Shown here in pieces: positions 16,402 to 43,792 of a stretch of 64,000 nucleotides of DNA; positions within the stretch are counted from its first letter, which is position 1, and each line of letters starts with the position of its first letter. A model generated the notes under the pieces. It was not told the origin of the DNA, searched no databases, and saw nothing but the letters and a program-made list of their open reading frames with translations. This DNA is from an uncultured Eubacteriales bacterium (GTDB lineage Bacteria; Acidobacteriota; Aminicenantia; Aminicenantales; Aminicenantaceae), in NCBI GenBank assembly GCA_964645765.1, contig CAZYBE010000011.1, positions 7,897 through 71,896 on the forward strand, written 5' to 3'. The position numbers and the translations under genes are program-made.

Positions 16402-16536
16402 TTATTGCTTAGGAGATTTTCGCTCTGAAAATAAAAGCCAAACTGTTATAAAAAGAGCCAAAACCAATAATCCAACCGTAAAAAAAGCAATCATCTGGAG
16501 GCATGTTTTCAGAAGACTCAGCAGAGCTCCTTCCAT
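16402..16536 (-). CDS. 44-aa single-TM small protein, not in the ORF track
   Basis: My translation: MEGALLSLLKTCLQMIAFFTVGLLVLALFITVWLLFSERKSPKQ*; starts 31 nt after the propeller-1 stop. Confidence 0.5.
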   Translation of the reverse strand: MEGALLSLLKTCLQMIAFFTVGLLVLALFITVWLLFSERKSPKQ

Positions 16537-16567
16537 GCTCACTTGATTTATCTCGCTTAATCTTAAT

Positions 16568-18670
16568 TTATTTTTTCTTGCCTTTCTCTTTTGGCAGGAA
16601 ATTTTCCATCACCCAGATTTGTGGAAGTTCAGATTTGGGTGGACGGGAGGCAAAAGTGATGCGCCGTCCATCAGGATGAAAGCTCAGATGTTCCATCCTC
16701 TCCATGGTCACGCCAAGGCTTTGAGGTGTGCCGCCTTCTGAAGGAATCCGCCTCAGCTCCCACTTTAAATCATCCTCAGGGTCTTCTGAAAAATATATAT
16801 ATTTACCATCAGGACTCCAAGCAATATCAATAATCCAACGGCCTCCCTGCTTGAATCGATGCAGTTCTTTCAATTCTCCCCCTGCTGCAGGAACGACTTT
16901 CAAGACACGTGTATTTTCTTCAGCTCGCATAAGCACAGCCAATTTCTTGCCATCCCGAGAAAGGGCTATACTATGATTGTCCTGAGGAGCATGTTCAAGC
17001 TCTTTCTCCTCTCCAGTCTCTATGTTCCTGAGTAAAACCTGAGTTAGATTTTTAGTCTCGTGGGCTCTGACATAAATGACCCACTTACCATCGTGTGAAA
17101 TTTGTGGGGAATGAATATATTCTTTCCCCTCTGTCTTCATGAAAGAAGTCACTTGCCCAGTTTGGGCACTTATCAGAAAGATTCCACCGCCATCTCCGAC
17201 AGTCGCTTTGGCAAAAATAGAGCGGCCATCAGGAGTCCAGCGGGGATAACCAAGGTTGAGTTCATAGGGGAGTTCACGAACTTGTCCGGATTCGACAGAA
17301 TAAATGCAAATGACATTTCGACGCTCCTGAGGTCCCCGCATTGAGCGGTAAACAAGATATTTTCCATCAGGCGACCAGTCAGGCGACATGTTGTGGCCTT
17401 CATAGGGAAGGGGTTCCTTTTCAGGCGGGGAAATTATCTTCCCTGATTCTGGGTCGAGTGTTGCTGTGTAAACATCATACAACAAACCAGGTGGAGTGTA
17501 ATAAAAGGCGCCATCCTGAGTGATTCCCAGAGGCTCAATAAACCCTATATCACTCTTTAAAAGCAAGGGAGCAGCCTGAGGTTTTCCTTCATCGACTCGT
17601 ATGATCCAGGCGTCCATGGTTCCTGTTCGTTTGCTGGCAAAGAGGATATTCTTTCCATCCGGGGCCCAAGCGAGTAAGTAGTCGTGGGCTGGGTGTGGAA
17701 CCAGGGGAATTTCTCGATTCCCATCAATGTCGAGCAAAAAGATATCATGCTCATAGCTGTCTTCTTTTGGTGGACAGTCATAGGCGAGGTAGCGTCCATC
17801 AGGAGACAATAATGCTTTAACATCATAGGGGGCGCGCACCATAATCTTTTTAAGAATGCGAACCGAGCCGTCAGCCACAGATACGAGCCCGAGCTCACAC
17901 CCTTTCCCTCTAATGATTCCGACCAGAATGTATTTGCCGTCTGGGGACCAATCAACCGCAGCAACCCATTCTCCCTCTTTTCCTGGATACAGAATGCGAG
18001 GTTTTTTGTTGTCCATTCCAATGATGCGCAGCTCGGTGTAATCAGCCTTAACCCACTCGTAAACGAGTTGCTTGGAGTCTGGTGACCATCGCGAATTCAA
18101 CGCATATCCAGGGCTATCCCAAAGTTTTCTCTCGGTGAGCCTGAGTTTCTTTCCGGTGGCAATCTCTCTCACAGCGATGTCGCCTATTTCCCAGTCCACC
18201 TCTGAAAGGTACTTGCCGTCTGGAGAAACTTTTCCAAATCCACCCCACTCGGAGACTGTCCAGATCGGGTCAATTCTAAATTGCCCATAACCCTTTTCAA
18301 CAAAATTTTGCGCTTTTAAAAGAACAGAAAGTTTTTCTTTCGCCATTTTGACGGAATCGGCCTGCTCTGGATAATTGTCGATGACTTTTTGAAAAGCTTT
18401 TTGGGCATCTTTAAGACCTAACTTTTCATAGCAAATTCCAACTTGAAACTGTGCTTTTGCAGCTACTTTTCTGTTTTCGGGGAATTTGGTGATGACTTTA
18501 AGAAAGAGTTGAATCGCTCCCTGTAAATCTCCTTCTGCATCTTTCTTAAAGATTGCGGCTTCAAAGAGTTCCTCGGCTGACTCCTGAGAAAAAGCATGTT
18601 TCAGCGGGATAAAGAAAAAAATAATCCATAAAAAGACCAATAACCAAATTGAAATTTTTATTCGTCTCAT
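16568..18670 (-). CDS. Module 1: secreted TPR + TolB/PD40 beta-propeller protein
   Basis: Signal peptide; AKAQFQVGICYEKLG TPR; many WSPDG repeats; C-terminal IWVMENFLP; SD ggagg. Confidence 0.9.
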   Translation of the reverse strand: MRRIKISIWLLVFLWIIFFFIPLKHAFSQESAEELFEAAIFKKDAEGDLQGAIQLFLKVITKFPENRKVAAKAQFQVGICYEKLGLKDAQKAFQKVIDNYPEQADSVKMAKEKLSVLLKAQNFVEKGYGQFRIDPIWTVSEWGGFGKVSPDGKYLSEVDWEIGDIAVREIATGKKLRLTERKLWDSPGYALNSRWSPDSKQLVYEWVKADYTELRIIGMDNKKPRILYPGKEGEWVAAVDWSPDGKYILVGIIRGKGCELGLVSVADGSVRILKKIMVRAPYDVKALLSPDGRYLAYDCPPKEDSYEHDIFLLDIDGNREIPLVPHPAHDYLLAWAPDGKNILFASKRTGTMDAWIIRVDEGKPQAAPLLLKSDIGFIEPLGITQDGAFYYTPPGLLYDVYTATLDPESGKIISPPEKEPLPYEGHNMSPDWSPDGKYLVYRSMRGPQERRNVICIYSVESGQVRELPYELNLGYPRWTPDGRSIFAKATVGDGGGIFLISAQTGQVTSFMKTEGKEYIHSPQISHDGKWVIYVRAHETKNLTQVLLRNIETGEEKELEHAPQDNHSIALSRDGKKLAVLMRAEENTRVLKVVPAAGGELKELHRFKQGGRWIIDIAWSPDGKYIYFSEDPEDDLKWELRRIPSEGGTPQSLGVTMERMEHLSFHPDGRRITFASRPPKSELPQIWVMENFLPKEKGKKK

Positions 18671-18743
18671 CGCTTATCCTCCCTGTAAAAAATTGTTCAC
18701 AGGAGAATGTTATCAAATCTTCTGGAACGAGTGGTTAAGCTTG

Positions 18744-18765
18744 TGTTGAGATTCAAATGCGTTTT
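18744..18765. promoter_or_regulatory. Candidate module-1 box upstream of propeller 1
   Basis: tgttgagattcaaatgcgtttt versus tgttgtgatttgatttcgtttt at 21910-21931. Confidence 0.4.
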
Positions 18766-18776: not shown

Positions 18777-19457
18777 TTATCCTTGAAATTTGTACCCAAC
18801 TCCCCTGATGCTGATGAGATGTCTTGGCTCTTCAGGATTTTTCTCTATTTTTTTTCTTAAATGGACGATATGCGGGTCTATCGTTCTGGGCGAGACAATA
18901 GCCTCTTTCCACGCTTCATCGAGTATCGCATCTCTGCTAACCACTTCTCCTCTGTGTTCGATGAAAAACTTAAGGAGCTTAAATTCGAGGGCTGTTAGAT
19001 ATAACTTTTTTCCTGCTTTGAGAATTTCATGGCTCTTAAAATCTACAGATATGTCTCCAAATTTGTAAACGTCTCCGGTCTCCTCCTTCTGCTTAATCCT
19101 TCTTAAAATAGCTTTCACTCTGGCCACGAGTTCCCTTGAGCCGACAGGCTTGGTGACATAATCATCAGCGCCCAACTCCAATCCCATCACTTTATCCATC
19201 TCATCTGTCTTTGCTGCTGTGAGCATCAGAATCGGCACGTTTTTGCCCGCCTCCCTGAGCTTCTTGCATACCTCGAAACCATTTAACTCTGGAAGCAGGA
19301 TATCAAGGATGATCAACTGAAAGTCATGCTCCATTGCTTTCTTTAAACCTTCTTTCCCATCCATGGCAACAGAGACTTTATAGCCTTCGAATTCAAGGTC
19401 ATCTTTCAATCCCATGAGAATGGCCTTGTCATCTTCGATTATTAAAATCTTTTCCAT
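18777..19457 (-). CDS. Module 1 OmpR-family response regulator
   Basis: IIEDD, LIILDILLP, GADDYVTKP, winged-helix RTIDPHIVHLRKKIE, RGVGYKF. Confidence 0.95.
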   Translation of the reverse strand: MEKILIIEDDKAILMGLKDDLEFEGYKVSVAMDGKEGLKKAMEHDFQLIILDILLPELNGFEVCKKLREAGKNVPILMLTAAKTDEMDKVMGLELGADDYVTKPVGSRELVARVKAILRRIKQKEETGDVYKFGDISVDFKSHEILKAGKKLYLTALEFKLLKFFIEHRGEVVSRDAILDEAWKEAIVSPRTIDPHIVHLRKKIEKNPEEPRHLISIRGVGYKFQG

Positions 19458-19478: not shown

Positions 19479-21605
19479 TTATGGCTTTACAGGAATTCTA
19501 ATCGTGACTTTTGTCCCTTCCCCCACTCCACTCTCCAAAAGCACCTCACCTCGATGGGCTTGGACGATATGGCTGACTACAGTCAGGCCAATGCCGCTTC
19601 CTTTGATATTGCTATTGTGCACACTTTGAGTCCTGTAAAATTTTTCAAAAACCTTTTCTTGCTCGTCCTTGCTGATGCCTATTCCCTCGTCCTTTACCTC
19701 AAAAAAAATGTTTTTTTCATCAGACCGGGCACGAAGAAAGACATTTCTACTCTCGCCCGAGTATTTTACAGCATTATCAAGCAGATTAAAGAGAGCCCGG
19801 GAAAGCGCTTCTCTGTCTGCATTAACTCTAAGCATCTGTTTTGATATCTCGCTATTAATGACGAATCCCTGTGAAGCCACCTGTTCCTGGAAACGAGAAG
19901 CAACATCCCTTGCCAATTCAACGACATCTACCTCCTCAAACTTGTACTCTTTCATCCCGGCTTCGATCTTCGAGAAATCGAGAATATTTTCTATGAGCCT
20001 GCTCAAGCGCTCGCTTTCCGTGGTTATCGTCTCATAGTACTGTTGTTTTTTATCCTCCCCCTGGACCCGTCCTCTCTGAAGCATCTCCGATAAATAGCGG
20101 ATCGAAGTTAAAGGCGTCCTGAATTCATGCGAAACAGTGGAGACAAAATCTGATTTTAGCCTTGCTAACTCCAGTTCTTTGGCTGTGCTCTTGATGGCCA
20201 GAAATCCTCCAAAGAACAACGCGACTATTACGACCATGACAGAAAGAATATAGATATTCCTCCGCAGGTTAAATTGCCTTTTTGCAGACCCCCGCTCGGT
20301 TTGGTAGATACTTACTTTCCAAGGAGGGAAATCATCCTCAAAGCTCCTTGAAAAAGTTAATCGTGGGAGCGGGCTTTTCAGACGAGTCAAGTCTTCACCT
20401 GCTATCTTTTTACCCTGCTCATTTTCTACCAAGATGTGCCAATCTTTTTTCAGCGGGAGCTTGGCTAAAATCGGAGGAAGTAGCTTTTCTGATAGGATGC
20501 CTGAGGCTATTTTCATGCCGAAGACTGAGCTCTCATTGACAGGAATACAGGAGATAAGATAATTCTCCTCTCCGATTGGCTCAGAAAGATGGGAGAAGCT
20601 TCCAGGACTTGGAGAAAGAGGCTTTCTCGTCTCAATAATTGGGATGAATTTCGCCATGATATTTTCTATGGTATTCATTCTTTTTAACTGCTCTTCCTCA
20701 ACCTTCTTTAAGCTTTGCCACTTTTCCTGGATAACTTTGCCCTCCTTTGTTCCGTTGATATTGATATCTGTTATGGATTTTTCAATCATGTCTTTAATTT
20801 TATTCAAATAGAAATAAAACTGGCCTCGACTCAAAGGCCATCTGGATTCCAAAAGGCTGTTGTAAAATTCAAGAAATGATTCGACCGCTTTTATCTTCCT
20901 ATCCATCTTCCAATTAATGTTTCCTATTTGATATTGAGCTATTAGCCCGATTGGAACCCCATCTGAACTAAACCCATCCGGCCATTCTTTCAAAATCTTC
21001 TGATATGATTCGGCGGCCTTTATATAATTTCCAGACTTCTCGTAACACCGTCCAATACAATTCAACAATATGGCACGGGAGACACTATCAGAAGCAATAT
21101 TTGTCAACGTTTGATAAGATTTTATTGCCTGAGGATAATCTCTTGTCTTGAATTCCAATGCCTCTGCTTCTTTGAAAAGTGGATTGGCCTCGACCTTGGT
21201 GCCATACTCTTTTAATTCCTGGATTTCCCCTGATAGCAGGAAAAGCGGCTTGCGGATTGGAAAGACGACATTTCCTTTCTCTTTGACCAAGAAAATCTCA
21301 TCGACTATTTCCTCTTCATCCGCTATTTTTTTGCATAGTTCTTCAAAATCACCCTCTTGACTGATGATGCGAGAGCCTTGGACTTTCCGGATTATTCTAT
21401 CCTCAGCCTCAAAGATAACTGCTCTAACCTGGTCAATAACAAGCCCTGCGGACCTCTGCTGTTCATCTTCTATCTCTTTCTCCCTGATTAGCTTTTCTCT
21501 CTCCGCTTCCCGGATAGCGAATATGGTCAGTATAAGGCTGAAGATAAATATTATCGCAGCGAAGAGTATTGTCGCTCTTCTCTGCCAGTTCAGTTTTATC
21601 TTCAT
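19479..21605 (-). CDS. Module 1 sensor histidine kinase with an extracytoplasmic TPR-like domain
   Basis: Two TMs; LLNCIGRCYEKSGNYIKAAESYQKI; H-box VSHEFRTP; NLLDNAVKY, DEGIGI, GSGIGL. Confidence 0.95.
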   Translation of the reverse strand: MKIKLNWQRRATILFAAIIFIFSLILTIFAIREAEREKLIREKEIEDEQQRSAGLVIDQVRAVIFEAEDRIIRKVQGSRIISQEGDFEELCKKIADEEEIVDEIFLVKEKGNVVFPIRKPLFLLSGEIQELKEYGTKVEANPLFKEAEALEFKTRDYPQAIKSYQTLTNIASDSVSRAILLNCIGRCYEKSGNYIKAAESYQKILKEWPDGFSSDGVPIGLIAQYQIGNINWKMDRKIKAVESFLEFYNSLLESRWPLSRGQFYFYLNKIKDMIEKSITDININGTKEGKVIQEKWQSLKKVEEEQLKRMNTIENIMAKFIPIIETRKPLSPSPGSFSHLSEPIGEENYLISCIPVNESSVFGMKIASGILSEKLLPPILAKLPLKKDWHILVENEQGKKIAGEDLTRLKSPLPRLTFSRSFEDDFPPWKVSIYQTERGSAKRQFNLRRNIYILSVMVVIVALFFGGFLAIKSTAKELELARLKSDFVSTVSHEFRTPLTSIRYLSEMLQRGRVQGEDKKQQYYETITTESERLSRLIENILDFSKIEAGMKEYKFEEVDVVELARDVASRFQEQVASQGFVINSEISKQMLRVNADREALSRALFNLLDNAVKYSGESRNVFLRARSDEKNIFFEVKDEGIGISKDEQEKVFEKFYRTQSVHNSNIKGSGIGLTVVSHIVQAHRGEVLLESGVGEGTKVTIRIPVKP

Positions 21606-21909
21606 TTGGAAATAATCCTCAGCTCATTATTCAATATGATTTGTTTTCTTTGACAATTTGGACATTTGAACCCCGTTTCCGCTTCAAGAGCTTAATACAG
21701 GAAAAACCAATAGTCAATTCTATAACTCAATATCTCTTTCAACCAACTTAAGCTGAATTTCCTCTATGATGATGTGATGCAAGGACTTTTTTCTATTCTC
21801 TTCTCCTTTATTTAGGTCTTGTGGACCAAACTTGCACCGTCAAGTAAAACTCACACTCAAAGCATAGAGCATTTTTCAATAAGAAAGTGTTAAGGCCCTG
21901 TTTAGATTC

Positions 21910-21931
21910 TGTTGTGATTTGATTTCGTTTT
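21910..21931. promoter_or_regulatory. Candidate module-1 box upstream of kinase 1
   Basis: Similar to 18744-18765; lies at the edge of the duplicated tail. Confidence 0.35.
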
Positions 21932-22040
21932 TTTCAGAAGACTTAACAGAGCCCCTCTGTGCTCACTTAATTTATCCCGCTTAATCTTAATTTATTTTTT
22001 CTTGCCTTTCTCTTTGGGCAGGAAGTTCTCCATGACCCAG
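21932..22040 (-). repeat. Propeller-2 3' end and downstream tail, duplicated from propeller 1 (about 16506-16615); contains a dead copy of the sORF start
   Basis: ttttcagaagact...gctcactt.attta..cgcttaatcttaatttatttttt shared; ATG replaced by ACA. Confidence 0.75.
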
Positions 22041-24091
22041 ACCTCGGACTTTTCATTCTGCGTCCTCGCAGTAAAGGCAATACGTCGACCGTCTGGGTGA
22101 GCACGCAAATGCATCAACCTTGACATCGCTAAATCAAGCTTCTCAGGCTCGCCGCCTTTCACTGGCACGCGCCACAAATCGACCATGTCCTCACTTCCCT
22201 CACGTGTTTTTCCGTAGAGTATGTACTGCCCATCCCTCGCCCACGCAATCGTGCTGATGTCTTTGACTTGTATCAACTCCAGAGGCTCGCCGCCTGCGGT
22301 TGGAAGAAGCTTCACCACATTTCCCGCAGTAAAGGCTATTTGTCTACCATCCGGTGAAAGTACTATAAGATGACGGTCTGGGCTTTGGGAAAAGCGAAGA
22401 AGCTCCTTCTCAATGCCGGTTTCAACTTCGTAGCGTATGATCCGACGGGATTCCTTGCCTGACCGCATAAAGTAAACTATTTTTCCGTCAGGAGCCCCTT
22501 CAGGCGAAAATATGGCTTCGCCCTTATCCGAATCCGACTGGGCGATGACCTCAGCATCGCCTGTCTGAGCGTTGATAGCGAACAAAAACCACCATTTTCC
22601 CTTCTCGTTCGGTCCGATGGCGAGAATCGAGCGGCCATCAGGAGACCAGCGGATGTAGTGAAAGTTCAGGCCTCCAACATGCTTGGGAACCAATTCACGG
22701 ATTTCATCTGTTCGAAAGGAGCGAATGAGCAAAACAACTCCTCCTCCTGCCACTTCCCCTCGTGACGAACGGCAGACCAGTTCCTGACCGTCGGGTGACC
22801 AACTGGGAGCGGAATTGAAGCCTTCATACTTCTGAACTGCCTTGATGGGAGAGGCCAGCACCTTGCCGGTCTCCGGGTCGATCGAGGCAACGTAGATGTC
22901 ACTCCACCCAGAATAGATACCATAATACAAGGAGCCCTCTCGAGTGATGCCGAGTGGACGGAGATTTCCCATATCTGCCCTTACAAGCTCAGCATCTCCT
23001 TTGGGTTTCCCATCAGCAACATGAATGGCCCAAATGCCTATGCTTCCAGTGCGGTCACTCTTGAAAACCAACCCTTTCCCGTCAGGTGTCCAGCCGAGGA
23101 CCAGATCATCAGCCGGATGCTCAACGAGCGGTATTTGCCGGCTTCCGTCGGCGGCGAGGAGGAAAATATCGCGGTTTCTCAAGTCTTGCTGTTGAGGAAA
23201 GCTGTAAGCAATATATTTTCCATCAGGTGAAAGGCTCATCCTCAATCGGTCACCCGAACATGGCGCCAGTGATTTTACATCCTTGACAGATCCATCTTCC
23301 GTGGATACAAACGCAATCTTTAGGGCTTGGCCCTGCATACTAAAAAAGGTCAGAATTTGCTTCCCGTCCCCAGACCAAGAGGCCGGCCATGGCCACTCTT
23401 CCTTGCTGGCGTAGAGGACTCGGGGTGCGGAGCCATCCATTCCTATGATTCGCAGTTCACCGAATCCTTCCTTATTCTGCCAGGTGTATGCGACTTGGCG
23501 ACCGTCGGGAGAGAATATGGACTGGTAGGCCATCTCTCCGGCATTATAGGAAGCATCTTTGGTGATTAGGCGGTTTTCCCCTTTTTCAAGGTCGCGGACT
23601 CCAAGATTGCCATTCTCCCACCAGTTCACATAGGTGAGGTATCTGCCGTCTGGGGAAGGTGCTCCCATAAAATAGGAATCGATGGCGTCAGCCCAGACCT
23701 GGCGGATTCGGAATTCCTTTTCGCCTTTTTCGATTATTGCCTGCGCTCTCGACAAAACATCCAGCTTTTCACGCGCCACTCTTACTGCTTCGGCTTGCTC
23801 TGGATAATTGTCGACTACCTTCTGAAAGGCTTGCTGGGCTTCTTCAAGACCTAACTTTTCATAGCAAAAGCCGATATACAGTTGAGATTTGGCTGCGTAT
23901 TCTCTTTCTCCAGGATATTTCTGGATTAGCTCACTGAAGAGCTTGATGGCTTCATTCAGGTCGCCCTTTGTTTCCATGGCGAATTTCGCTTTCTCGAAAA
24001 GCACTTTGTGCTCTGGAGAATTTTGAAGGCCAAAAGCCATCAGCGCAGCTGCTAAAACTGCGGTTGTGATAATAATTTTTTTTAAGTTCAT
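21992..24091 (-). CDS. Module 2: secreted TPR + TolB/PD40 beta-propeller protein
   Basis: Signal peptide; AAKSQLYIGFCYEKLG; PD40 repeats; VWVMENFLPKEKGKKK. Confidence 0.9.
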   Translation of the reverse strand: MNLKKIIITTAVLAAALMAFGLQNSPEHKVLFEKAKFAMETKGDLNEAIKLFSELIQKYPGEREYAAKSQLYIGFCYEKLGLEEAQQAFQKVVDNYPEQAEAVRVAREKLDVLSRAQAIIEKGEKEFRIRQVWADAIDSYFMGAPSPDGRYLTYVNWWENGNLGVRDLEKGENRLITKDASYNAGEMAYQSIFSPDGRQVAYTWQNKEGFGELRIIGMDGSAPRVLYASKEEWPWPASWSGDGKQILTFFSMQGQALKIAFVSTEDGSVKDVKSLAPCSGDRLRMSLSPDGKYIAYSFPQQQDLRNRDIFLLAADGSRQIPLVEHPADDLVLGWTPDGKGLVFKSDRTGSIGIWAIHVADGKPKGDAELVRADMGNLRPLGITREGSLYYGIYSGWSDIYVASIDPETGKVLASPIKAVQKYEGFNSAPSWSPDGQELVCRSSRGEVAGGGVVLLIRSFRTDEIRELVPKHVGGLNFHYIRWSPDGRSILAIGPNEKGKWWFLFAINAQTGDAEVIAQSDSDKGEAIFSPEGAPDGKIVYFMRSGKESRRIIRYEVETGIEKELLRFSQSPDRHLIVLSPDGRQIAFTAGNVVKLLPTAGGEPLELIQVKDISTIAWARDGQYILYGKTREGSEDMVDLWRVPVKGGEPEKLDLAMSRLMHLRAHPDGRRIAFTARTQNEKSEVWVMENFLPKEKGKKK

Positions 24092-24155
24092 GATGCTACC
24101 TCCTGGTGGTTATTTTTCCATTCACCAACAAAGTAGCTCTTTTTATCTTTAATGT

Positions 24156-24191
24156 TGTCAAACAAAAGTAAAAGAATGTAAAAGATTGTTA
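24156..24191. promoter_or_regulatory. Module-2 box upstream of propeller 2
   Basis: Four GT(A/C/T)A half-sites at 24157, 24168, 24178, 24188 (spacing 11/10/10). Confidence 0.6.
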
Positions 24192-27076: not shown

Positions 27077-27113
27077 TGTCAAAAAAATGTAAAAAATTGT
27101 CATCAAATGTAAA
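27077..27113. promoter_or_regulatory. Module-2 box upstream of kinase 2
   Basis: TGT(C/A)A half-sites at 27077, 27088, 27098, 27108 (spacing 11/10/10); includes minus-strand TTGACA with TGnTACAAT downstream. Confidence 0.6.
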
Positions 27114-35553: not shown

Positions 35554-35670
35554 TCCTATCCTCCTTTGACTTTAATTAATTCAACCCTCAATTTAGCGCT
35601 CTCGGCTTAGGAATGTGTCATGATGATGTCTCAAAACTGTAATTTTTTTGTAAAAATAGCTTCAGAAAAT

Positions 35671-35698
35671 TGTCTTCTTTTTGTCATGAAAATGTCAT
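35671..35698. promoter_or_regulatory. Module-4 box upstream of propeller 4
   Basis: ttgtcatgaaaatgtcat (35681-35698) is identical to 38401-38418; TGTC at an 11-bp period; second set at 35616-35640. Confidence 0.75.
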
Positions 35699-36387
35699 TT
35701 ATCGAGGATAAGCTTGTAGCCGACGCCATGAATTGTGATCAAGTATTGCGGGTTGGCTGGGTCATCTTCAAGCTTGTTTCGAAGCAAAGCGATGTGATTG
35801 TCCACAGTCCGAGTTGTCGGATATTGGTCATAGCCCCACACTTCATCGAGAAGCTCTTCGCGTGTGACCACTTCGCCCGCGCGTGCAGCCAAGAGGCGAA
35901 GCACACCAAATTCCTTGCGCGACATGTTTATTGCCTTGCCGGCTTTCTGCGCCTCGAACTTCCTGAAATCGACGAACACCTTGCCGAAATGCAGCTCTTC
36001 CGGAAGATTCCCGGCCTTGGATTTCTGCATGCGTCTTAAAATGGCACGGATTCTTGCCATCAACTCAGGAACTGAAAAAGGCTTTGTGACATAATCATCA
36101 GCTCCAAGGTCAAGCCCGAGCACACGGTCCACTTCCTCACCCCTGGCAGTCAACATTAAGATCGGCGTGACGATGCCCTCATCACGCATCTTACGGCAAA
36201 GCTCATAGCCGCTCATTTTAGGCAGCATCAAATCCAGAATAATCAAGTCGGGCTTTTTCTCTCGAATTAAACAGTAGCCCTGCTCCCCGTCTGTAGCGGT
36301 TAAAACCTCATACTTTTCATACTCCAGGTTATCCTTGAGTCCGCGGAGTATCGCCTGATCATCCTCGATGATGAGGATCCGTTTCAT
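35695..36387 (-). CDS. Module 4 OmpR-family response regulator
   Basis: LIILDLMLP, GADDYVTKPF, RTVDNHIALLRNK. Confidence 0.95.
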   Translation of the reverse strand: MKRILIIEDDQAILRGLKDNLEYEKYEVLTATDGEQGYCLIREKKPDLIILDLMLPKMSGYELCRKMRDEGIVTPILMLTARGEEVDRVLGLDLGADDYVTKPFSVPELMARIRAILRRMQKSKAGNLPEELHFGKVFVDFRKFEAQKAGKAINMSRKEFGVLRLLAARAGEVVTREELLDEVWGYDQYPTTRTVDNHIALLRNKLEDDPANPQYLITIHGVGYKLILDK

Positions 36388-38351
36388 AACTCCTTCTCCA
36401 GGGGAAGGTAAATGGAAAATGTGCTCCCTTTTCCAGGTGTACTTTCCACCTCGATATATCCTCTGTGAGCTTTAACAATATGGGAAACAAGGGCAAGACC
36501 AAGGCCAGTTCCGGGAAGGCGCTTGTTCTCCTCAGAAGGGATTCGGTAGAACTTTTCAAAAATCCGCTCTTTTTCCCGCGGATCAATTCCCACACCCCGG
36601 TCAACAACCTGAATCAGGGCATGGCCGTCCTTTCTTTGAAGCCGCAACTCGATTTCCCGGGACTCACCCGAGTACTTCATGGCATTGTGGAGGAGGTTCA
36701 AAATTGCCTGTTCGATCGCATCTCGATCCACTCGAACTTCGGGCAAGCCTTCATCTGCCTGGACATGAAGCTTGAAGCCCTGTTTACTCAGGGGATATTC
36801 CATGGCTCGCGCAGCTCCCTGGATAATTTCGGAGAGAGAAGCTGTTTCAGGCCTGTAAATCCTTTTCCCTTGCTCGATCTTGGAGAAGTCGAGCACGTTG
36901 TTTAAAAGCCGTGTCAGGCGCTCGCTCTCGTTAACAATCGTGTCCAGGTATTCTCTCTGCGTCTTGGGATCCTTTGAGCGGCCCAAACGCAGCGTTTCAG
37001 CGAACATCCGGATGGCTGTAAGCGGTGTCTTTAGCTCATGGGAGACACTGGAAACAAATTGGGAGCGCATCTCAGCCATCTGGACTTCGCGGCGCACGTC
37101 TCTCCAGAGGAGATAGGCTCCGAACAGAGTCACGCTCAAGACTAAAAGCAGAGCGAGCAAATAAAAAGCAGGTTGAACGCTCCATTGCTTAGATAGCACT
37201 GACAATTCGCCGGCCTCGAAAGCGATTTTCAAACCCCGGAAATTCGGACCTAGGAATTTTCCTTCGGAAGCTTCATCTCGGATAAAGCGGATTTCTCCAG
37301 GGTAAGTTTTTAGAAAGCCGCTGTCTGATTTGAGTGAAGCGAGGATATCCCCAGCTTCAACAACAATGACCAAAGGATTTGTTCCAGCCGGAGGCGAAGC
37401 CAGACTGATTAGCCACGGACCTTCACCATAAGGGACCCAGATGGATTCATTTTTCTGACTTTCCTGATTCGTAAACAAGGGCAAGGTTTGGAAATCTCTT
37501 TGGAGCGCCAAAGATTGTTCCATCTTTCGGATATAATCCAGAATCTGCTGATTATATTTATGTGCAGCATCTTTAACGGACGGTTCGGGGGTGTTGATTA
37601 ATTTTTCTGCTAAATCTTTAAGCAGATAGGCTTCAGCAGGAGAAAGCCACCGCTTCGCTTCAATTTCTGCGCTGATAGCTTCTGCGATTTCCTCAAAGCC
37701 CGTACCAGCTTCAAGAAGCGGCCCTGCGGCATATAAGCAGAAGGGAATTCCATACTCATCTTTTATTCTCGAAGGGAGCTTTAAAATACTATGGAAATGC
37801 TCTAAAGCTTCTTTTTTTCTATCCGTCTTCGAGAGAGCTCGCGCCAACAAAAGATGAGCGTAGCTTTTTCGAATGGGTTCTCGAGTTGCATTAATCAGCT
37901 GGCGATAGAGCTCAGCCGCACGGGTAAAATTTTTCTTTGCAAATTCCTGTTGCTCGGCATGCTGAATCTGTATTGCAAAATTAGAATCACTCAAAATTTG
38001 TCTGAATTCCGCGCTCTGTTGATTTGATTCCCACGGCAAACGCAACTTTGCTTCTTTCACCTGACCGATAAGCGCGACCTCAGGATTTATATATTCTAGG
38101 TTGCCCGGGAGTTCAGTCCAATTTATCGACACACCTGCTTCCTGTAATTTGATCTTTTCCAGGCGCATGAGTAAGACTTGGCCAAATTCTCTCGCCGCAC
38201 GCTGTCGCTCATCCTCCATTCGCTTCTGAGCAAGCTCCTGTTCTTGCCTTATCATACGCCAAGCAAAAATTACCAGGAGTAAGCTTGGCAAAACGACAGC
38301 GATTAAAAACAGAAAAAATTGCTTGCGATGGCTGTGCGAATTTATCGGCAT
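36384..38351 (-). CDS. Module 4 sensor histidine kinase with a TPR-like sensor domain
   Basis: Two TMs; AHLLLARALSKTDRKKEALEHF; VSHELKTP; NLLHNAMKY; GTGLGL. Confidence 0.95.
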   Translation of the reverse strand: MPINSHSHRKQFFLFLIAVVLPSLLLVIFAWRMIRQEQELAQKRMEDERQRAAREFGQVLLMRLEKIKLQEAGVSINWTELPGNLEYINPEVALIGQVKEAKLRLPWESNQQSAEFRQILSDSNFAIQIQHAEQQEFAKKNFTRAAELYRQLINATREPIRKSYAHLLLARALSKTDRKKEALEHFHSILKLPSRIKDEYGIPFCLYAAGPLLEAGTGFEEIAEAISAEIEAKRWLSPAEAYLLKDLAEKLINTPEPSVKDAAHKYNQQILDYIRKMEQSLALQRDFQTLPLFTNQESQKNESIWVPYGEGPWLISLASPPAGTNPLVIVVEAGDILASLKSDSGFLKTYPGEIRFIRDEASEGKFLGPNFRGLKIAFEAGELSVLSKQWSVQPAFYLLALLLVLSVTLFGAYLLWRDVRREVQMAEMRSQFVSSVSHELKTPLTAIRMFAETLRLGRSKDPKTQREYLDTIVNESERLTRLLNNVLDFSKIEQGKRIYRPETASLSEIIQGAARAMEYPLSKQGFKLHVQADEGLPEVRVDRDAIEQAILNLLHNAMKYSGESREIELRLQRKDGHALIQVVDRGVGIDPREKERIFEKFYRIPSEENKRLPGTGLGLALVSHIVKAHRGYIEVESTPGKGSTFSIYLPLEKEL

Positions 38352-38400
38352 GGGGTTAGCCTTTATGCGGAAGTTATCTTATTAAGAGGGATATCGAAAG

Positions 38401-38418
38401 TTGTCATGAAAATGTCAT
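38401..38418. promoter_or_regulatory. Module-4 box upstream of kinase 4
   Basis: 18-bp perfect match to 35681-35698. Confidence 0.75.
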
Positions 38419-38667
38419 GAGGCAAGCACTTGTCTACCTATTACCCTTTTTTCTTATCCATTAGTTTATAACATAGGAAATAACTGTGGTCAAACAATCT
38501 GGCTTTCTGTGAATGTTCTACTAGTCCAGTAAGATTCTTAATACGAGGGCAGATGCTTTAAGAGAGAATAATCTTGAGCCTCAGTGAGTGGCTTGATTGG
38601 TCAACGCAAAAAGTTACTTGATATCTTCGATAAGCTTCTCATAATTTTCGATGTTCTGATCTAGATT

Positions 38668-40848
38668 TTACTTTTTTTGCCTATTTTCTTCAGGCAGGAA
38701 ATTCTCCATCACCCAAATATCTACACTCAGAGTGGAGCAACAAAAGGCCATACTCTGTCCATCGGGATGAAGACTTAGATATTTCAATTGTTTCATCTCC
38801 AAGCCAAGCTCCTGTGGTTTTTCTTCGTCCAAAGAAATCTGCCATAGGCTGCATTTGTTAATGTTATCCTTGTATTTGGCGAAAACCAATCCTTTTCCAT
38901 CGGTTGTCCATGCGAATGTTGAAAAAGTTTCTTTTTTCCCAAGCGTCAAAATTTTTCTGAGTTCTCCACCAGAAGAAGGCATGACATAAAGGGTATCCAA
39001 TATGGTCTCCAAGTTCTGTCTCGTAAATGCCAGCCAATCTCCATCTGGTGAGAGAGACATGTGAAAACATCCAGACTTAAGTTCCTGTTCTCGGCCAGAT
39101 TCAATATCATAAACCTTGAGAATGGAGGGGTATTTTTCAAGGGGTTCATCATATTTTTGCACCGTATAATAGAGCTTCTTTTTATCAGGCGACCAGCTGG
39201 CCCAGAAGATTCTGATAAAATCAGGGCCGAATGTTTTCAGCTTCTTCGAATCTCCAGTTTGCACATCAATTTCAAAAATCCCAAGTTGCCCTGAAGGATC
39301 TTCTCCTGCCGCTAGGATAGATTCTCCATCTGGAGACCATTTGATAGGTTGAACAGACTTCAAGTCGAGCCTGAATTCTTTTTGTTCGTCGGTACCTTCC
39401 GACTGGATACAGAGAAACCAGACATAATCGCTTCCGAATAGCCTGGAAGACATATAGGCCAGAGACTTCCCATCCGGAGACCAATCGGGAAAGAGATTTG
39501 AACCCTCATACTTTTGCATCGCTTTTTCTGGTGAGGTCTTGAGTTTGGCTTTTTGTTTATCGTAAGTGGCCGTGTAAATATCACTCGTCCAATTTTCCTT
39601 ACTGTAATAAAAAGATCCACTTTTATCAAGACCCAGGGGATTTATCTCTCCCAATTCCTTGTGAACCAGCAGAGGATTTCCCTGGAGCTGTCCTTCTTCA
39701 ATTCCTACAATCCAAGAATCTAAGGATCCTCTCCTATTGCTGGCAAAAAAGAGCTTTTTTCCATTAGGCGATAAGTCAAGGATAAAATCATCAGCTGGAT
39801 GCTCCACCAGCTTTATGTCCTTCCCGTCTTCCAAAGAGTATAGAAAGATGTCACGTTCTGGGGAATCTTTCTTCTGGGGCAAATCATAGACTATGTACTT
39901 CCCATCAGGTGAAAGCAAGGCGTTATCTAGAGGATTAAGAGGCGTTTCAAGCTGCTTCAGCATCCGGATCGAACCATCTGCAACTTTGACCAATGCCAAC
40001 TGACCTGTCATATCGCTTTTTAAGAAGGCAGTAAGGATATGATTTCCATCCGATGCCCAGTCCAGAGGAACTACAAAAGGAAATTCCTCACTGTGCAGGA
40101 GAACGCGGGGCTTCGGTTTTGTCAGAGGAATAATGCAGATATCACATCCGCCGCCGCTGGGTAAGCCTAAACTCGACCAGCCATAGGCAATCTTTTGGCC
40201 ATCGGGAGCCCATATGGAACTCGTAGCATACTTCATTTTCTTAATCAATGACATCCTTTCTTTTGCTGAAATCTTTTCCACATCACCGAATATGAAAAAA
40301 TTATCCGTCAACCGCCTTCTCTTTTTTGTGTTCAGATCGAGAACAGCAAGGTCGCCTCCATGCCTATCTGTAAAAGCTATGTATCGGCCGTCTGGGGAAA
40401 CAGAGCTCAGATTGTTCATCCGCACATCGAGGTTTTCCCAGAGCTTCCTCATTCTGAATTGTCTGTTGCCTTTATCCGACACGGCTTGGGCTTTAATAAA
40501 AATGGCAAGTTTTTCTTTGGCCACCTTGACAGCTTCAGCCTGCTCAGGATAATTTTCGACGACTTTTTTAAAAGCTTTTTCGGCTTCTTTAAAACCTAAT
40601 TTTTCATAGCAGAGGCCGATGTGAAGTTGAGCTTTAGCCGCAACCTCACGATTATCTGGATACTGTTTCAATATTTTCTGATAAAGCTCGATGGCCTTCT
40701 GCAAATCTCCCTGAGCTTCTTCCATGTAAAGTGCTTTTTCGAAGAGCTCTCCTGCAGTCTGCTGGTATGATAAGCTATTGAATACGAAGAGAAGAAGGCA
40801 AAAGGCTGAAACAAAAAGACTGAAAACGATTTTCCTAACATTTTTCAT
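38668..40848 (-). CDS. Module 5: secreted TPR + TolB/PD40 beta-propeller protein
   Basis: SD ggagg before ATG 40848; AAKAQLHIGLCYEKLG; PD40 repeats; IWVMENFLP. Confidence 0.9.
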   Translation of the reverse strand: MKNVRKIVFSLFVSAFCLLLFVFNSLSYQQTAGELFEKALYMEEAQGDLQKAIELYQKILKQYPDNREVAAKAQLHIGLCYEKLGFKEAEKAFKKVVENYPEQAEAVKVAKEKLAIFIKAQAVSDKGNRQFRMRKLWENLDVRMNNLSSVSPDGRYIAFTDRHGGDLAVLDLNTKKRRRLTDNFFIFGDVEKISAKERMSLIKKMKYATSSIWAPDGQKIAYGWSSLGLPSGGGCDICIIPLTKPKPRVLLHSEEFPFVVPLDWASDGNHILTAFLKSDMTGQLALVKVADGSIRMLKQLETPLNPLDNALLSPDGKYIVYDLPQKKDSPERDIFLYSLEDGKDIKLVEHPADDFILDLSPNGKKLFFASNRRGSLDSWIVGIEEGQLQGNPLLVHKELGEINPLGLDKSGSFYYSKENWTSDIYTATYDKQKAKLKTSPEKAMQKYEGSNLFPDWSPDGKSLAYMSSRLFGSDYVWFLCIQSEGTDEQKEFRLDLKSVQPIKWSPDGESILAAGEDPSGQLGIFEIDVQTGDSKKLKTFGPDFIRIFWASWSPDKKKLYYTVQKYDEPLEKYPSILKVYDIESGREQELKSGCFHMSLSPDGDWLAFTRQNLETILDTLYVMPSSGGELRKILTLGKKETFSTFAWTTDGKGLVFAKYKDNINKCSLWQISLDEEKPQELGLEMKQLKYLSLHPDGQSMAFCCSTLSVDIWVMENFLPEENRQKK

Positions 40849-40956
40849 TGTATCCCTCCATTTCATAGTTTCAGCCTTAATATAATGTTTTCTTCAATGG
40901 GATGTGTTCAGGAAGTATGAAAATATAATGAAATTTCATCGCAAATGGCCCCAAAG

Positions 40957-41643
40957 CTAATCAACGAATTTGTATCCCACTCCTCTGATGCTGAGGATAT
41001 GTTTTGGATTGGTGGGGTCATCTTCTATTTTCTTTCTGATATTGGCGATGTGGCTGTCAATGGTCCGAAAAGAAACGGAAACATTGTCTTCGCCCCAGAC
41101 TTTATCCAGAAAATCATCTCTTGTTACCACCTCGCCTTTTTTCTGGATAAAAAGTTTTAGCATCAGAAATTCTAAAGACGTTAACTCAAGCTTCTTTCCT
41201 TTCTTTCTGGCCTCGTATTTCTTGAAGTCCAGTTCTACCTGGCCAAATTTATATTCTGCTAAATCTTTTGCTCTTTCTTCTGTTCTGCGCAGAACCGCCC
41301 TGGCACGGGCCATAAGCTCTCGCAGGCTGAAAGGCTTGGTCACATAATCATCAGCACCCAACTCCAAGCCCAAGACTCTATCGATCTCTTTGTCTTTCAC
41401 GGTAAGCATGATGATCGGCGTTGAATCCCCTTCCATTCTCAATTTCTTGCAGACTTCGTAACCGTCCAGGAGAGGAAGCATGATATCCAGGATGACGAGG
41501 TCCGGTTTCTGCTGCTTGACCATCTTGAAACCCTTCTCGCCATCCTCTGCCGTGAAAACTGAATAACCTTCGGATTCAAATTCATCCTTAAGGCTCAACA
41601 AGATTCCGGGCTCGTCTTCAATGATTAGAACTTTTTTCGCCAT
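40957..41643 (-). CDS. Module 5 OmpR-family response regulator
   Basis: LVILDIMLP, GADDYVTKPF, RTIDSHIANIRKK. Confidence 0.95.
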   Translation of the reverse strand: MAKKVLIIEDEPGILLSLKDEFESEGYSVFTAEDGEKGFKMVKQQKPDLVILDIMLPLLDGYEVCKKLRMEGDSTPIIMLTVKDKEIDRVLGLELGADDYVTKPFSLRELMARARAVLRRTEERAKDLAEYKFGQVELDFKKYEARKKGKKLELTSLEFLMLKLFIQKKGEVVTRDDFLDKVWGEDNVSVSFRTIDSHIANIRKKIEDDPTNPKHILSIRGVGYKFVD

Positions 41644-41650
41644 GTAAACC

Positions 41651-43792
41651 TCATAACTCTTTTCTCTTTATCGGAAAAACTAAAGAAAAAGTGCTTCCCT
41701 GACCGATTTTGCTCTTGACAGATATCTTCCCTCCATGGGCTTCGACAGTATGCTTGACCAGAGTCAACCCCAAACCTGCGCCTTTCGCTGATTGCCTGAG
41801 CGCATTTCGTCCTTGATAAAATTTGTCGAATATTTTGTTGAGTTCATCCTGAGGGATGCCTATTCCTCTATCCATGACTTCCAAGATGACATTATCTTCA
41901 TCTTTTTTGAGATTGACATAAATATCTTTTATATCAGTGGAAAATTTTAGGGCGTTATCCAGAAGATTATTGAAAGCCTGCGACAGAGCATCTTGATCAA
42001 CATAGAGATGGGGAATACCCTCAGAAACTACGGCATGAATCTTTATCCCCTTTTGAATCTCATCTTTTCTGAAATTCTCTATCTGCTGGAGCACAAGCTG
42101 AGCGACATCGGTCTCGACAAACTCATATTCCTTCTTCCCTTCTTCTATCTTGGAAAAATCAAGAATGTTTTTTACAAGTCTGGTCAACTTGTCTGCATCC
42201 TGAGAGATGAGTGAAAAATACTGTTCCATTTTTACTTCATCTTTAACCTTTCCCTCTTTTAGCCTTTCAATCAGAGCCTTTATCGAGGTTAAGGGAGTCT
42301 TGAATTCGTGGGAGACAGCAGAGACAAAGTCGGATTTTATCTTTAAAACCTCCATCTCATGAGCAATGGTCCGGACTATGATAGCCGCACCAAAAATAAG
42401 GATGACGACCAGGGTGAGGATGGTCCAGAAGTAAAAGCTCTGCCTGATATCAACGATCGACGAACTCTCCGGCTGGCTGCGAAAAATTTCTATCCTCCAG
42501 GGCGGAAAATTGTCTTCGAAGAATTCAGTAACAGCGGATACTCCTGCAGATGAATCTTTCCTGCCAAAAAGAACTCTTCCAGAAAGATCGGAAATAGCTA
42601 GCCTCATATTTTCACTGGATGGAATCTCTTCGATTATTGTTTTCAGCGTTTGATCTTCTAAAGATTCATTTTTTATCTTGACTCCAATTATTCCCATTGA
42701 ATTCGTTCCTGTCTTATCCGGAATCATGGCTGCAGAAATAAGAAAACTTCTTTCATCTATTGATTTGGAATGGTGCAACGGCTGCAGCCTGTCTATCCCT
42801 GGCTCAAGGAGTTTTTTACGCAATTCGGGAATAACGTCTTTTTCCAACGCTGTTATGACTTGCCACTGCTCGATCTTTTTCTGTTGCATTTTCTTTAACA
42901 GCTCAAATTCTCTCAAATATTCATCCGATACAGTATCAGCTAATTTTTTTGACATAGCATCAGCAATGATTTCTTCCAATATGGAGGAATAAGTCCGGAA
43001 TTGGTCTTCTTTCAAGCTCCAGGAATCTTGAAGAAGGTCCCTGTATAAGGCTAAAGAGCTTCTCAGACGATTCTCATCATCACCTGAATTCTTATAGCAA
43101 TCCAAAATCTGCAATCTGGCTACGAGGCTTAAGGGCAAGCCTGACGGGGTTATGCTTTCAGGATATTCTTCACATATTCTTAAATAAATTTTAATCGCCT
43201 CTTTGGAATTTTTTAATTTCGTAAAACAACGGCCGATACTATTGAGCACCTGAGCCTGGCAATTTTTGTCTTTGGAATTGGAGAAAATTTCTTCGTAGAG
43301 AGAAATGGCTTTTCTGTAATTTCCTTGCCTGAATTCATATTCTTCTGCCTCTTTCAATTTCCGGGTTTGAGAATCGCTAAAAGACGCCGCAGATACAGGA
43401 ATTGCAGTCTTTGTAGTGTCCTGAAACAAAGGGAAAAGAGGAGCTTCATTTTTATAAACAAGAAAAATCTGTTCTACCAATGGGTTCGAAGCCAATCTCG
43501 TCTCTAAAAGTCCCCTTATGGCTGAATAATTCCTGTCAGAAAAGGATGGAAATTGAGACAGATTCTGAAGAGCTAAATCAATATCCTTCAATCGGGTATG
43601 AATTTGAGTCTTTAAATAATCAGCAGCTCTCCTCAGTTCTGCTTCTTCCTGCCTGGCGAGTCTGAATTTTTCATTCCTTATGGCCCTGATGCCAAAGATG
43701 CTGAGTGAAACAGAGGGAAGGAAAATTGTTAGGAAGAAGATTAATACAAGTTTCTTTTGCCTTTTAAGAGCTATCTTAAGATTCTCGAGCAT
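41651..43792 (-). CDS. Module 5 sensor histidine kinase with a TPR-like sensor domain
   Basis: Two TMs; QVLNSIGRCFTKLKNSKEAIKIY; VSHEFKTP; NLLDNALKF; GAGLGL. Confidence 0.95.
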   Translation of the reverse strand: MLENLKIALKRQKKLVLIFFLTIFLPSVSLSIFGIRAIRNEKFRLARQEEAELRRAADYLKTQIHTRLKDIDLALQNLSQFPSFSDRNYSAIRGLLETRLASNPLVEQIFLVYKNEAPLFPLFQDTTKTAIPVSAASFSDSQTRKLKEAEEYEFRQGNYRKAISLYEEIFSNSKDKNCQAQVLNSIGRCFTKLKNSKEAIKIYLRICEEYPESITPSGLPLSLVARLQILDCYKNSGDDENRLRSSLALYRDLLQDSWSLKEDQFRTYSSILEEIIADAMSKKLADTVSDEYLREFELLKKMQQKKIEQWQVITALEKDVIPELRKKLLEPGIDRLQPLHHSKSIDERSFLISAAMIPDKTGTNSMGIIGVKIKNESLEDQTLKTIIEEIPSSENMRLAISDLSGRVLFGRKDSSAGVSAVTEFFEDNFPPWRIEIFRSQPESSSIVDIRQSFYFWTILTLVVILIFGAAIIVRTIAHEMEVLKIKSDFVSAVSHEFKTPLTSIKALIERLKEGKVKDEVKMEQYFSLISQDADKLTRLVKNILDFSKIEEGKKEYEFVETDVAQLVLQQIENFRKDEIQKGIKIHAVVSEGIPHLYVDQDALSQAFNNLLDNALKFSTDIKDIYVNLKKDEDNVILEVMDRGIGIPQDELNKIFDKFYQGRNALRQSAKGAGLGLTLVKHTVEAHGGKISVKSKIGQGSTFSLVFPIKRKEL

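Follow-up and report, generated by a model that had tools for sequence, protein, structure and literature searches.

Among described signaling systems, the Cpx/CpxP-type circuit is the nearest functional analogue of the locus analyzed here. In CpxA/CpxR-CpxP, as in BaeSR-Spy of the Enterobacteria, an inner-membrane kinase with a periplasmic sensor works with an OmpR-family regulator in an autoregulated circuit, and an adjacent gene behind a direct-repeat site for that regulator encodes a secreted periplasmic protein that is an output and a possible feedback partner. Direct repeats phased by one helical turn are the site geometry of OmpR/PhoB-family regulators. Other parts of the locus recall other systems: TolB and CpoB (YbgF) of Tol-Pal, both periplasmic, have PD40 blades and a TPR_6-type TPR, respectively; the beta6-beta7 propellers of the tricorn protease stand in tandem, with 6+7 blades; and in the contact-dependent inhibition (CDI)/Rhs loci (CdiA-CT at VENN) and in pilE/pilS conversion, a short conserved peptide-coding motif separates a stable 5' part from a variable 3' cassette, which homologous recombination exchanges, with tandem spare copies as donors. 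PorE (PG1058) of Bacteroidota type IX secretion has a periplasmic N-terminal TPR followed by a beta-propeller and is under PorXY two-component control (PMC5053529). Here we analyze a stretch of 64,000 nt (the window; assembly GCA_964645765.1, contig CAZYBE010000011.1, positions 7,897-71,896, forward strand) from an uncultured Eubacteriales bacterium, placed by GTDB in Acidobacteriota; Aminicenantia; Aminicenantales; Aminicenantaceae and described as an uncultured sediment bacterium, which carries five tandem modules of a kinase, a regulator, and a secreted propeller protein whose body appears to have been exchanged between modules.

Fifteen large genes on the minus strand (16568-43792) form five collinear tandem triplets, M1 to M5 (Table 1), each in the order histidine kinase (HK; 655 to 713 aa), OmpR-type regulator (RR; 226 to 230 aa), and secreted TPR plus double-propeller protein (PP; 699 to 732 aa). 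A preliminary description of the stretch had reported the same gene order five times on this strand, which the open reading frame (ORF) list and domain scans confirm. It had placed the array at 16402-43792; the array is real, but its modules begin at 16568, as 16402 marks where a separate 46-aa ORF past PP5 ends. Identity among the paralogues is low (27 to 32% for HK, 49 to 58% for RR, and 28 to 45% for PP, with PP3 the most divergent body at 28 to 30% to the others), and by this measure the five copies are ancient paralogues. The sole interruption of the array is a 1-kb gap between PP2 and HK3, which holds a ParE-type toxin-antitoxin pair.

The triplet occurs widely, above all in Aminicenantes. 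A search with PP5 gives more than 6,400 relatives (E <= 0.001), mostly from Aminicenantes and Acidobacteriota metagenomes and with generic names only. A pattern search of species-representative genomes gave 74 related loci, from Aminicenantes, Terriglobia, Bryobacterales, Bacteroidota, Planctomycetota, and others, which were scanned with hidden Markov models built on the window paralogues; almost all of those with enough flank contain HK-RR-PP, often in 2 to 4 copies within 22 kb. Because a PP gene follows 81 of the 87 regulators that belong to the window RR family, and because HK-RR lies immediately 5' of 61 of the 80 PP genes with 3.3 kb of upstream sequence, gene order argues that the three genes are a genuine conserved unit; several of the six exceptional regulators have a PP slightly beyond the search distance or overlapping ORF calls. 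Other genomes contain orthologous counterparts of the five HK-RR types of the window, at times with their order preserved, and one related locus (L047) carries M2-, M3-, and M4-type modules consecutively. The synteny of kinase-regulator-PD40 triplets, which the preliminary description had put forward as a check, is thus borne out, and, in line with its remark that no characterization was known, we found HK-RR-PP nowhere described in the literature searched. In two Bacteroidota loci (L030:426-5267 and L053:3478-7023) ~7 nt separate the end of a PP gene from a family kinase gene, so that the order there could be read as PP-HK-RR; these contigs end too soon to show any further PP. We also sought a fourth component of the module. 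The 46-aa membrane ORF after PP5 was rejected as such, since sequences resembling it follow only 6 of 113 PP genes in the related loci; these small ORFs end in VWLC(F/C)(S/T), and PP4 is followed by a decayed copy of the 5' end of the ORF after PP5.

Both spacers of every module in the window contain direct repeats with a 10- to 11-bp phase. The first set lies 5' of the kinase gene, at 49 to 104 nt (M1, M2, and M4) or 250 to 315 nt (M3 and M5); the second lies within ~35 nt past the regulator stop codon and 38 to 144 nt 5' of the PP start, the RR-PP spacers being 90 to 141 nt long. Within the window each repeat core is found at its own two sites only, apart from one M1-like array upstream of plus-strand ORFs for a PHP-like protein, a metallophosphoesterase, and a LOG/lysine-decarboxylase-like protein, which may be an additional target of the M1 regulator. 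Among 66 modules, the sequence upstream of HK and the cognate RR-PP spacer share 3.1 8-mers, compared with 1.10 +/- 0.19 (maximum, 1.9) when the pairing was permuted 20,000 times. When modules are grouped by RR type, the repeats emerge as footprints kept in 5 to 10 genomes at both positions, a conservation that rescues the weaker M1 and M5 repeats; 5' of its M5-type kinase, L077 retains ATTCTCAACCTAATCGCAACATTTGCTTAAC although the rest of that spacer does not align with the window. The recognition helices of the five regulators differ at a few positions between modules. We infer that each regulator autoregulates and controls PP through these predicted sites, and with module-specific repeats at both positions, the likeliest role of PP is that of a regulated output in an autoregulated circuit. 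The preliminary description had called the propeller a dedicated receptor or an output; the repeats 5' of each PP gene fit the latter, and the dedicated pairing fails on the comparisons that follow.

What follows the conserved regulatory genes changes from genome to genome. Across 59 modules, the p-distances of HK sensor, HK core, RR, and PP leader/TPR are correlated with one another (Spearman 0.39 to 0.66), and those of the propeller body are correlated with HK sensor, HK core, RR, and PP TPR at 0.01 to 0.05 (0.05 for the kinase sensor); p-distances were used as Kimura-corrected distances break down at high divergence. A partial Mantel test of HK sensor against propeller body, controlling for RR and HK core, showed no residual signal of co-evolution (0.055, p=0.16). 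In a second analysis, based on pairwise alignments of 54 modules (1,431 pairs), RR identity tracked the identity of the PP leader/TPR (r=0.65) and was nearly independent of that of the body (r=0.09). The 40 pairs with regulators at least 80% identical had a median body identity of 0.38, which is the family background, with ~15% exceeding 0.55, and there are reverse cases in which bodies 93%, 87%, and 76% identical stand behind regulators 48 to 54% identical.

Individual comparisons place the change within the PP gene. M4 of the window and its counterpart in L074 share 88.6% amino acid identity in HK and 93.9% in RR and only 42.8% in PP; at the nucleotide level, identity is 90.8% over 27108-23850, from ~100 nt 5' of HK4 to PP4 codon 81, and then falls to ~45%. 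L075 has an M4-type HK-RR and leader (through PP4 codon 110) fused to an M5-type body (88% nucleotide identity, PP5 codons 77-701). L077, with ~93% nucleotide identity to the window, carries an M4-type body (84%, codons 66-692) behind a different HK-RR, followed by the PP3 tail and the PP3-HK4 spacer, then the M4 HK-RR with an unrelated body, and after that the collinear M5 module. Eleven further pairs have 5' breakpoints within ~15 codons of G.C(Y/F)EKLG and 3' breakpoints at the WVMENFLP end or at most ~50 nt past the stop codon. By these comparisons the propeller body behaves as a cassette that appears to have been exchanged repeatedly among modules and genomes by recombination at two joints.

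These results bear directly on the model of the preliminary description, in which five dedicated kinase-propeller pairs co-evolved through TPR-TPR contacts into a diversified ligand-sensing array. The strict gene order and the tracking of the regulator by the PP leader/TPR would both suit such pairs; physical linkage, however, explains the latter, as the breakpoint falls 3' of the leader. The PP TPR varies little among the paralogues and, as the part best conserved across them, cannot by itself give pair specificity. The bodies are swapped between close relatives, so that near-identical HK-RR carry unrelated ones, and the PP body is incongruent with the HK sensor, the HK core, and RR, an outcome that the preliminary description had itself named as speaking against its proposal. 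We consider this model very improbable.

Inside the window, nucleotide similarity between PP paralogues is limited to the two joint segments. The 89%-identical tract shared by PP4 and PP5 is likely a conversion tract at the 3' joint. The 5' joint was rejected as a DNA-level element: codon identity at identical residues there is 0.39 to 0.45, against 0.33 to 0.47 elsewhere, and the 0.60 seen at the 3' joint, though larger, is what its low-degeneracy residues W, M, E, N, and F would lead one to expect. With synonymous sites no more conserved than elsewhere, the 5' joint is conserved for protein reasons and serves recombination incidentally. Four related loci encode long PPs (Table 1) that look as if two bodies had been fused in frame, and such four-propeller proteins are to be expected as a by-product of unequal recombination between joints.

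The mosaics could instead be artefacts of metagenome assembly that joined paralogues at conserved motifs. Nearly all comparison loci are indeed metagenome-assembled genomes or metagenome contigs, and the joints are the most conserved segments. Against this, exact matches between paralogues at the 5' joint extend over no more than 13 to 18 nt, below the usual k-mer sizes, and the chimeric junction of L075 recurs identically across 5.3 kb in a second sample, which makes assembly chimeras unlikely; the pattern also appears in dozens of independent assemblies with consistent breakpoints. An artefactual origin of the pattern as a whole is therefore exceedingly improbable.

We hypothesize, and consider moderately probable, that every module works on its own as an autoregulated circuit for envelope sensing, with the downstream PP as its main local output. 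The kinase would detect a periplasmic signal through its own type-specific TPR and PDC-like sensor and phosphorylate its partner OmpR-family regulator, a transfer for which the conserved His and Asp are present. The regulator would then bind the type-specific phased repeats found 5' of its own kinase and 5' of PP and drive synthesis of PP, which combines a CpoB/YbgF-like TPR with 6+7-blade propellers and would be exported by Sec. The stable unit, inherited together, would consist of operator, kinase, regulator, operator, and PP leader (signal peptide and first TPR helices), and the cargo would be the propeller body from the AAKAQ..G.CYEKLG motif through the WVMENFLP end. The array is therefore better read as stable regulatory slots with interchangeable propeller cargo than as five co-evolved kinase-receptor pairs. 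PP may also feed back on the kinase in the fashion of CpxP on CpxA.

An alternative in which PP does take part in sensing is that it acts as a plug-in co-receptor, its conserved TPR or C-terminal tail docking on the conserved TPR of any kinase of the family and its exchangeable body determining the signal; its induction by the regulator would in that case amount to positive feedback. Co-receptor kinases of the LuxPQ and TorTS type are defined by such a physical complex of periplasmic partner and sensor. Several features are in keeping with this: kinase and PP both have a periplasmic TPR_6, the IGRCYEK of HK5 and HK1 resembles the IG.CYEKLG of PP, the TPR is the most conserved part of the kinase sensor and has peptide-binding TPRs as its Foldseek neighbors, the TPR and C-terminal tail are the most conserved parts of PP across all paralogues, and HK-RR and PP almost never occur apart. 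The rest of the kinase sensor is nevertheless type specific, with identities of 50 to 89% within types across genomes and 20 to 25% between types, which implies a stable signal for each type whichever propeller follows, and a generic dock would permit cross-talk among the five modules. We therefore regard the co-receptor as unlikely. That a kinase type keeps its sensor across genomes whatever body follows favors PP as output rather than as the determinant of sensing.

Several points weigh against the circuit with PP as its output. PP could be co-transcribed with HK-RR and still serve as a co-sensor, and free exchange of outputs between differently tuned sensors would be odd. In the window alone the M1 and M5 repeats are weak and rest on the footprints in orthologues; binding by the regulator, activation as opposed to repression, and a separate PP promoter are all predictions from sequence. 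Scans of the array for sigma-70 promoters and intrinsic terminators gave counts no higher than in shuffled sequence, and we draw no claim about transcription units from them. PP could be located in the periplasm or at the outer membrane. Most of the comparison sequences are metagenome-assembled, and some of the contigs may be chimeric.

The circuit could be extended to a reading of the arrays as a diversity-generating repertoire, in which stable, differently tuned HK-RR slots would express periplasmic propeller binders whose bodies are continually reshuffled between slots and genomes at the two conserved joints. This is a tentative suggestion, possible and not one we would expect to hold. If it did, the lineage would re-pair what is sensed with what is bound, which could be akin to innate immunity, directed at phage proteins or bacteriocins able to exploit Tol components, or could serve nutrient capture. 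No repertoire mechanism is described for two-component outputs in the literature searched.

The PP proteins match TPR_6 and PD40 repeats in Pfam, and all five in the window contain the motifs AAK(A/S)Q..(I/V)G.CYEKLG and W(V/L)ME(N/G)FLP, so that the shared N-terminal TPR and terminus noted in the preliminary description hold throughout. An AlphaFold 2 (AF2) model of PP5 (pLDDT 83) has an N-terminal hydrophobic helix or signal peptide, a five-helix TPR (32-125), and 52 strands that make 13 blades in two tandem propellers (132-689), with the chain stopping at the last blade; the double propeller is of the 6+7-blade, tricorn/TolB-like kind. As read from the sequences, all five begin with basic and then hydrophobic residues, typical of Sec signal peptides, and lack a lipobox, which suggests export via Sec. 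Foldseek with this model retrieved tandem-propeller proteins, including tricorn protease (1k32, rank 2), LRP6, and TolB; by phmmer against PDB, the best solved sequence relatives are TolB propellers (~1e-9) and the CpoB TPR (6g5s, 6e-4); and Tricorn_N and Tricorn_2nd are precomputed Pfam families on PP relatives. From its architecture PP most likely binds peptides, proteins, or glycans in the periplasm, and analogy with TolB, CpoB, and tricorn propellers makes peptide or protein ligands of the envelope the likeliest.

Could PP be an enzyme or part of a degradative machine, such as a hydrolase, a lactonase, or the substrate gate of a separate peptidase, with HK-RR as substrate-responsive regulators of polymer use? 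Aminicenantes are described as polymer fermenters, PP resembles the substrate-channelling propellers of tricorn, an S9 peptidase gene lies near one related locus, and there are weak Pfam matches to Lactonase, SGL, DPPIV_N, and Peptidase_S9_N. These matches, however, cover only non-catalytic propeller parts. In line with the preliminary description, no peptidase or hydrolase domain was found in PP by Pfam, NCBIfam, or AF2 with Foldseek, and none was found in the relatives of 1,258 to 1,291 aa, whose extra length is two more propellers only; a linked peptidase gene is absent from the window and is no regular feature of the related loci. We consider an enzymatic role very unlikely. Specific identities were likewise rejected: TolB (TIGR02800; 132.7 bits against a cutoff of 343, no TolB_N in Pfam, and kinases and regulators as neighbors), CpoB/YbgF (TIGR02795; 29.7 bits against 90.1, with the likeness confined to the TPR), tricorn protease or S9 peptidase (no C1-PDZ-C2 or S9 alpha/beta hydrolase after the propellers), and a known anti-phage defense protein (PADLOC models match no PP).

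All five kinases have HisKA and HATPase_c domains (Pfam, E 1e-17 to 1e-29), TPR matches in the N-terminal, periplasmic half, and a SHE(F/L)(K/R)(T/S)P motif with the phospho-acceptor at His438-495. In the AF2 model of HK5 residues 1-480 (pLDDT 85), a first transmembrane helix extends into the periplasm and is followed by a small alpha/beta element, a TPR-like helical repeat (137-281), a long helix, and a PDC/Cache-like alpha/beta domain (338-435), after which the second transmembrane helix continues straight into the DHp phospho-acceptor helix with no HAMP between; besides the peptide-binding TPRs, Foldseek neighbors of this sensor include the KinD PDC sensor. A profile of the five sensor regions alone, searched against 1.84 billion representatives, matched 1,573 clusters at 50% identity (E <= 1e-10), most of ~700 aa, so that kinases with a TPR and PDC-like sensor are, on profile evidence, a large and specific family. 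Among the regulators, RR1, the one scanned with Pfam, has Response_reg and Trans_reg_C; the best NCBIfam matches of RR5 are to the OmpR/PhoB family (RpaB, PhoB, MtrA, and others), all under the equivalog cutoffs; and LDIMLP with the conserved Asp is present in the alignment of all five. The pairs thus have the marks of OmpR/PhoB-class two-component systems, a kinase with the HisKA His and HATPase_c and a regulator with the receiver Asp and a winged-helix Trans_reg_C. PADLOC defense models showed only generic HATPase and receiver similarity to HK and RR. A sixth OmpR-family regulator in the window (60407-61138, minus strand) has no adjacent kinase of the family and adjoins a metallophosphoesterase gene (59466-60356).

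Both flanks of the array hold further features. A tRNA-Val gene (43958-44032, plus strand) adjoins the HK1 promoter, and its 3' part recurs at 46433-46477 and 48358-48408 (92 to 93%); these repeats enclose an AbiEii/AbiEi toxin-antitoxin pair (44329-46108) as well as an AAA_14/DUF4143 ATPase (46959-48197), and the region has the look of two small islands that integrated in tandem at the tRNA. Immediately downstream of the array (11850-16107, minus strand) are genes for a protein with TonB_C/TonB_2 domains (15193-16107), an ORF of 258 aa without an assigned family, and a BNR/sortilin-type propeller protein of 808 aa (11850-14276); the presence of a TolA/TonB-like C-terminal domain beside TolB/CpoB-like proteins may be more than coincidence. 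Beyond these, a 161-nt direct repeat (92.5%; 10674-10834 and 11826-11986) flanks a 220-aa coiled-coil ORF (10841-11503, minus strand).

Table 1. Features of the array and related elements. Positions are those of the window unless preceded by a related locus; TM, transmembrane helix.
Feature	Position	Strand	Details
M1 HK	41651-43792	-	713 aa; TM1, periplasmic TPR + PDC-like sensor, TM2 (452-471), His495, HATPase_c
M1 RR	40957-41643	-	228 aa, OmpR-family
M1 PP	38668-40866	-	732 aa; signal peptide, TPR, two PD40 propellers; translation may in fact start at Met7
M2 HK	36384-38351	-	655 aa
M2 RR	35695-36387	-	230 aa, OmpR-family; 4-nt overlap with HK2 stop
M2 PP	33403-35553	-	716 aa
M3 HK	30207-32348	-	713 aa
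M3 RR	29525-30205	-	226 aa, OmpR-family
M3 PP	27259-29412	-	717 aa; C-terminal motif WLMEGFLP
M4 HK	24881-27010	-	709 aa
M4 RR	24192-24878	-	228 aa, OmpR-family
M4 PP	21992-24091	-	699 aa
M5 HK	19479-21605	-	708 aa
M5 RR	18777-19457	-	226 aa, OmpR-family
M5 PP	16568-18670	-	700 aa
ParE-family toxin (PF05016, 2e-13) and upstream 74-aa antitoxin-like ORF	32652-33151	-	between PP2 and M3 operator
46-aa single-TM ORF	16402-16542	-	MSMEGALLSLLKTCLQMIAFFTVGLLVLALFITVWLLFSERKSPKQ; directly after PP5
M1 half-site			CTT(G/C/A)AC / TTTCAT
M2 half-site			TCATGACA
M3 half-site			(C/T)TTCACA
M4 half-site			TTTTACA / TTTGACA
M5 half-sites			(A)ATC(T/A)(C/A)AAC and CTTAAC
M1 putative operator, upstream of HK1	43851-43878	-	CTTGACAGAAT CTTCACACTTG CTTAAC
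M1 putative operator, RR1-PP1 spacer	40904-40935	-	TTTCAT..TTTCATACTTCCTGAACAC
M2 putative operator, upstream of HK2	38400-38421	-	TCATGACA TTT TCATGACA
M2 putative operator, at RR2 stop codon, upstream of PP2	35670-35697	-	TGACATTTTCATGACA..GAAGACA
M3 putative operator, upstream of HK3	32600-32638	-	CTTCACA x2, GTTACAA, CTTCAT, 11-bp phase
M3 putative operator, RR3-PP3 spacer	29496-29519	-	GTTCACATAAC TTTCACACAAA
M4 putative operator, upstream of HK4	27077-27114	-	TTTTACA / GATGACA / TTTTACA / TTTGACA
M4 putative operator, RR4-PP4 spacer	24154-24191	-	TAACAAT / TTTTACA / TTTTACT / TTTGACA
M5 putative operator, upstream of HK5	21887-21919	-	AATCACAACAG AATCTAAACAG GGCCTTAACAC
M5 putative operator, RR5-PP5 spacer	18731-18754	-	GAATCTCAACAC AAGCTTAACCAC
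M1-like array	48669-48706	+	CTTCATCAAATATTCACAATTTCTTCATATTTCCTTAAC, 16-nt core with 1 mismatch; upstream of ORFs 48728-51643 (+)
PP4 5' joint	23849-23896	-	codons 66-81, AAKSQLYIGFCYEKLG
PP1 5' joint	40594-40641	-	equivalent to PP4 5' joint
PP2 5' joint	35302-35349	-	equivalent to PP4 5' joint
PP3 5' joint	29173-29220	-	equivalent to PP4 5' joint
PP5 5' joint	18416-18463	-	equivalent to PP4 5' joint
PP4 3' joint	22016-22039	-	WVMENFLP
PP1 3' joint	38692-38715	-	equivalent to PP4 3' joint
PP2 3' joint	33424-33447	-	equivalent to PP4 3' joint
PP3 3' joint	27283-27306	-	equivalent to PP4 3' joint
PP5 3' joint	16592-16615	-	equivalent to PP4 3' joint
89%-identical tract	21931-22041 vs 16506-16617	-	last 16 codons of PP4/PP5 + ~60 nt downstream
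Long PP relatives	L012:9642-13517, L050:3201-7043, L040:239-4015, L069:8874-12719		~1,260-1,290 aa, one TPR + four propellers

Triplets of this kind number in the thousands across Aminicenantes and further phyla of sediment and soil, and none carries an annotation beyond "Tol biopolymer transport system component" or "histidine kinase"; much of the way in which these uncultured bacteria sense their environment and react to it probably depends on them. Each module can now be given a sensor type, type-specific predicted operators, and a defined gene that is predicted to be regulated. That bodies are swapped at fixed joints sets the modules apart from the usual two-component system and is potentially important; should the swapping prove adaptive, it would open a new route for rewiring signal to response and a natural scaffold for exchanging binding domains behind orthogonal sensors.

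Set against the systems with which we began, the modules combine familiar parts in a different way. Where CpxP and Spy are small helical proteins, PP is a 700-aa TPR and double-propeller protein; the sensor here is a TPR and PDC-like one without HAMP, there is no sequence homology in sensor or accessory protein, and the modules form tandem arrays of many paralogous types whose output body is exchanged between them. PP fuses the folds of TolB and CpoB and differs from both in its two propellers (13 blades), its lack of the TolB N-terminal domain, and its scores (133 against 343 for TolB and 30 against 90 for YbgF), and its genes lie outside the tol-pal operon, as dozens of paralogues under predicted two-component control. 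It shares with tricorn the 6+7 blades in tandem, the Tricorn_N/Tricorn_2nd matches, and the high rank of 1k32, but lacks C1-PDZ-C2 and is secreted, with an N-terminal TPR. PorE, unlike PP, is a lipoprotein with one propeller, a CRD, and OmpA_C, present in single copy and not adjacent to its regulators. The exchange of a cassette at a short conserved motif, with tandem copies as donors, is what CDI/Rhs and pil loci have in common with the array; here, however, the cargo is a predicted binding propeller and not a toxin or pilin, there are two joints and no immunity gene, each copy has its own HK-RR and predicted promoter, and there is no evidence of high-frequency switching within a strain. The closest class thus remains the two-component system with a regulated periplasmic accessory protein, from which these modules stand apart by the modular swapping of the output body.

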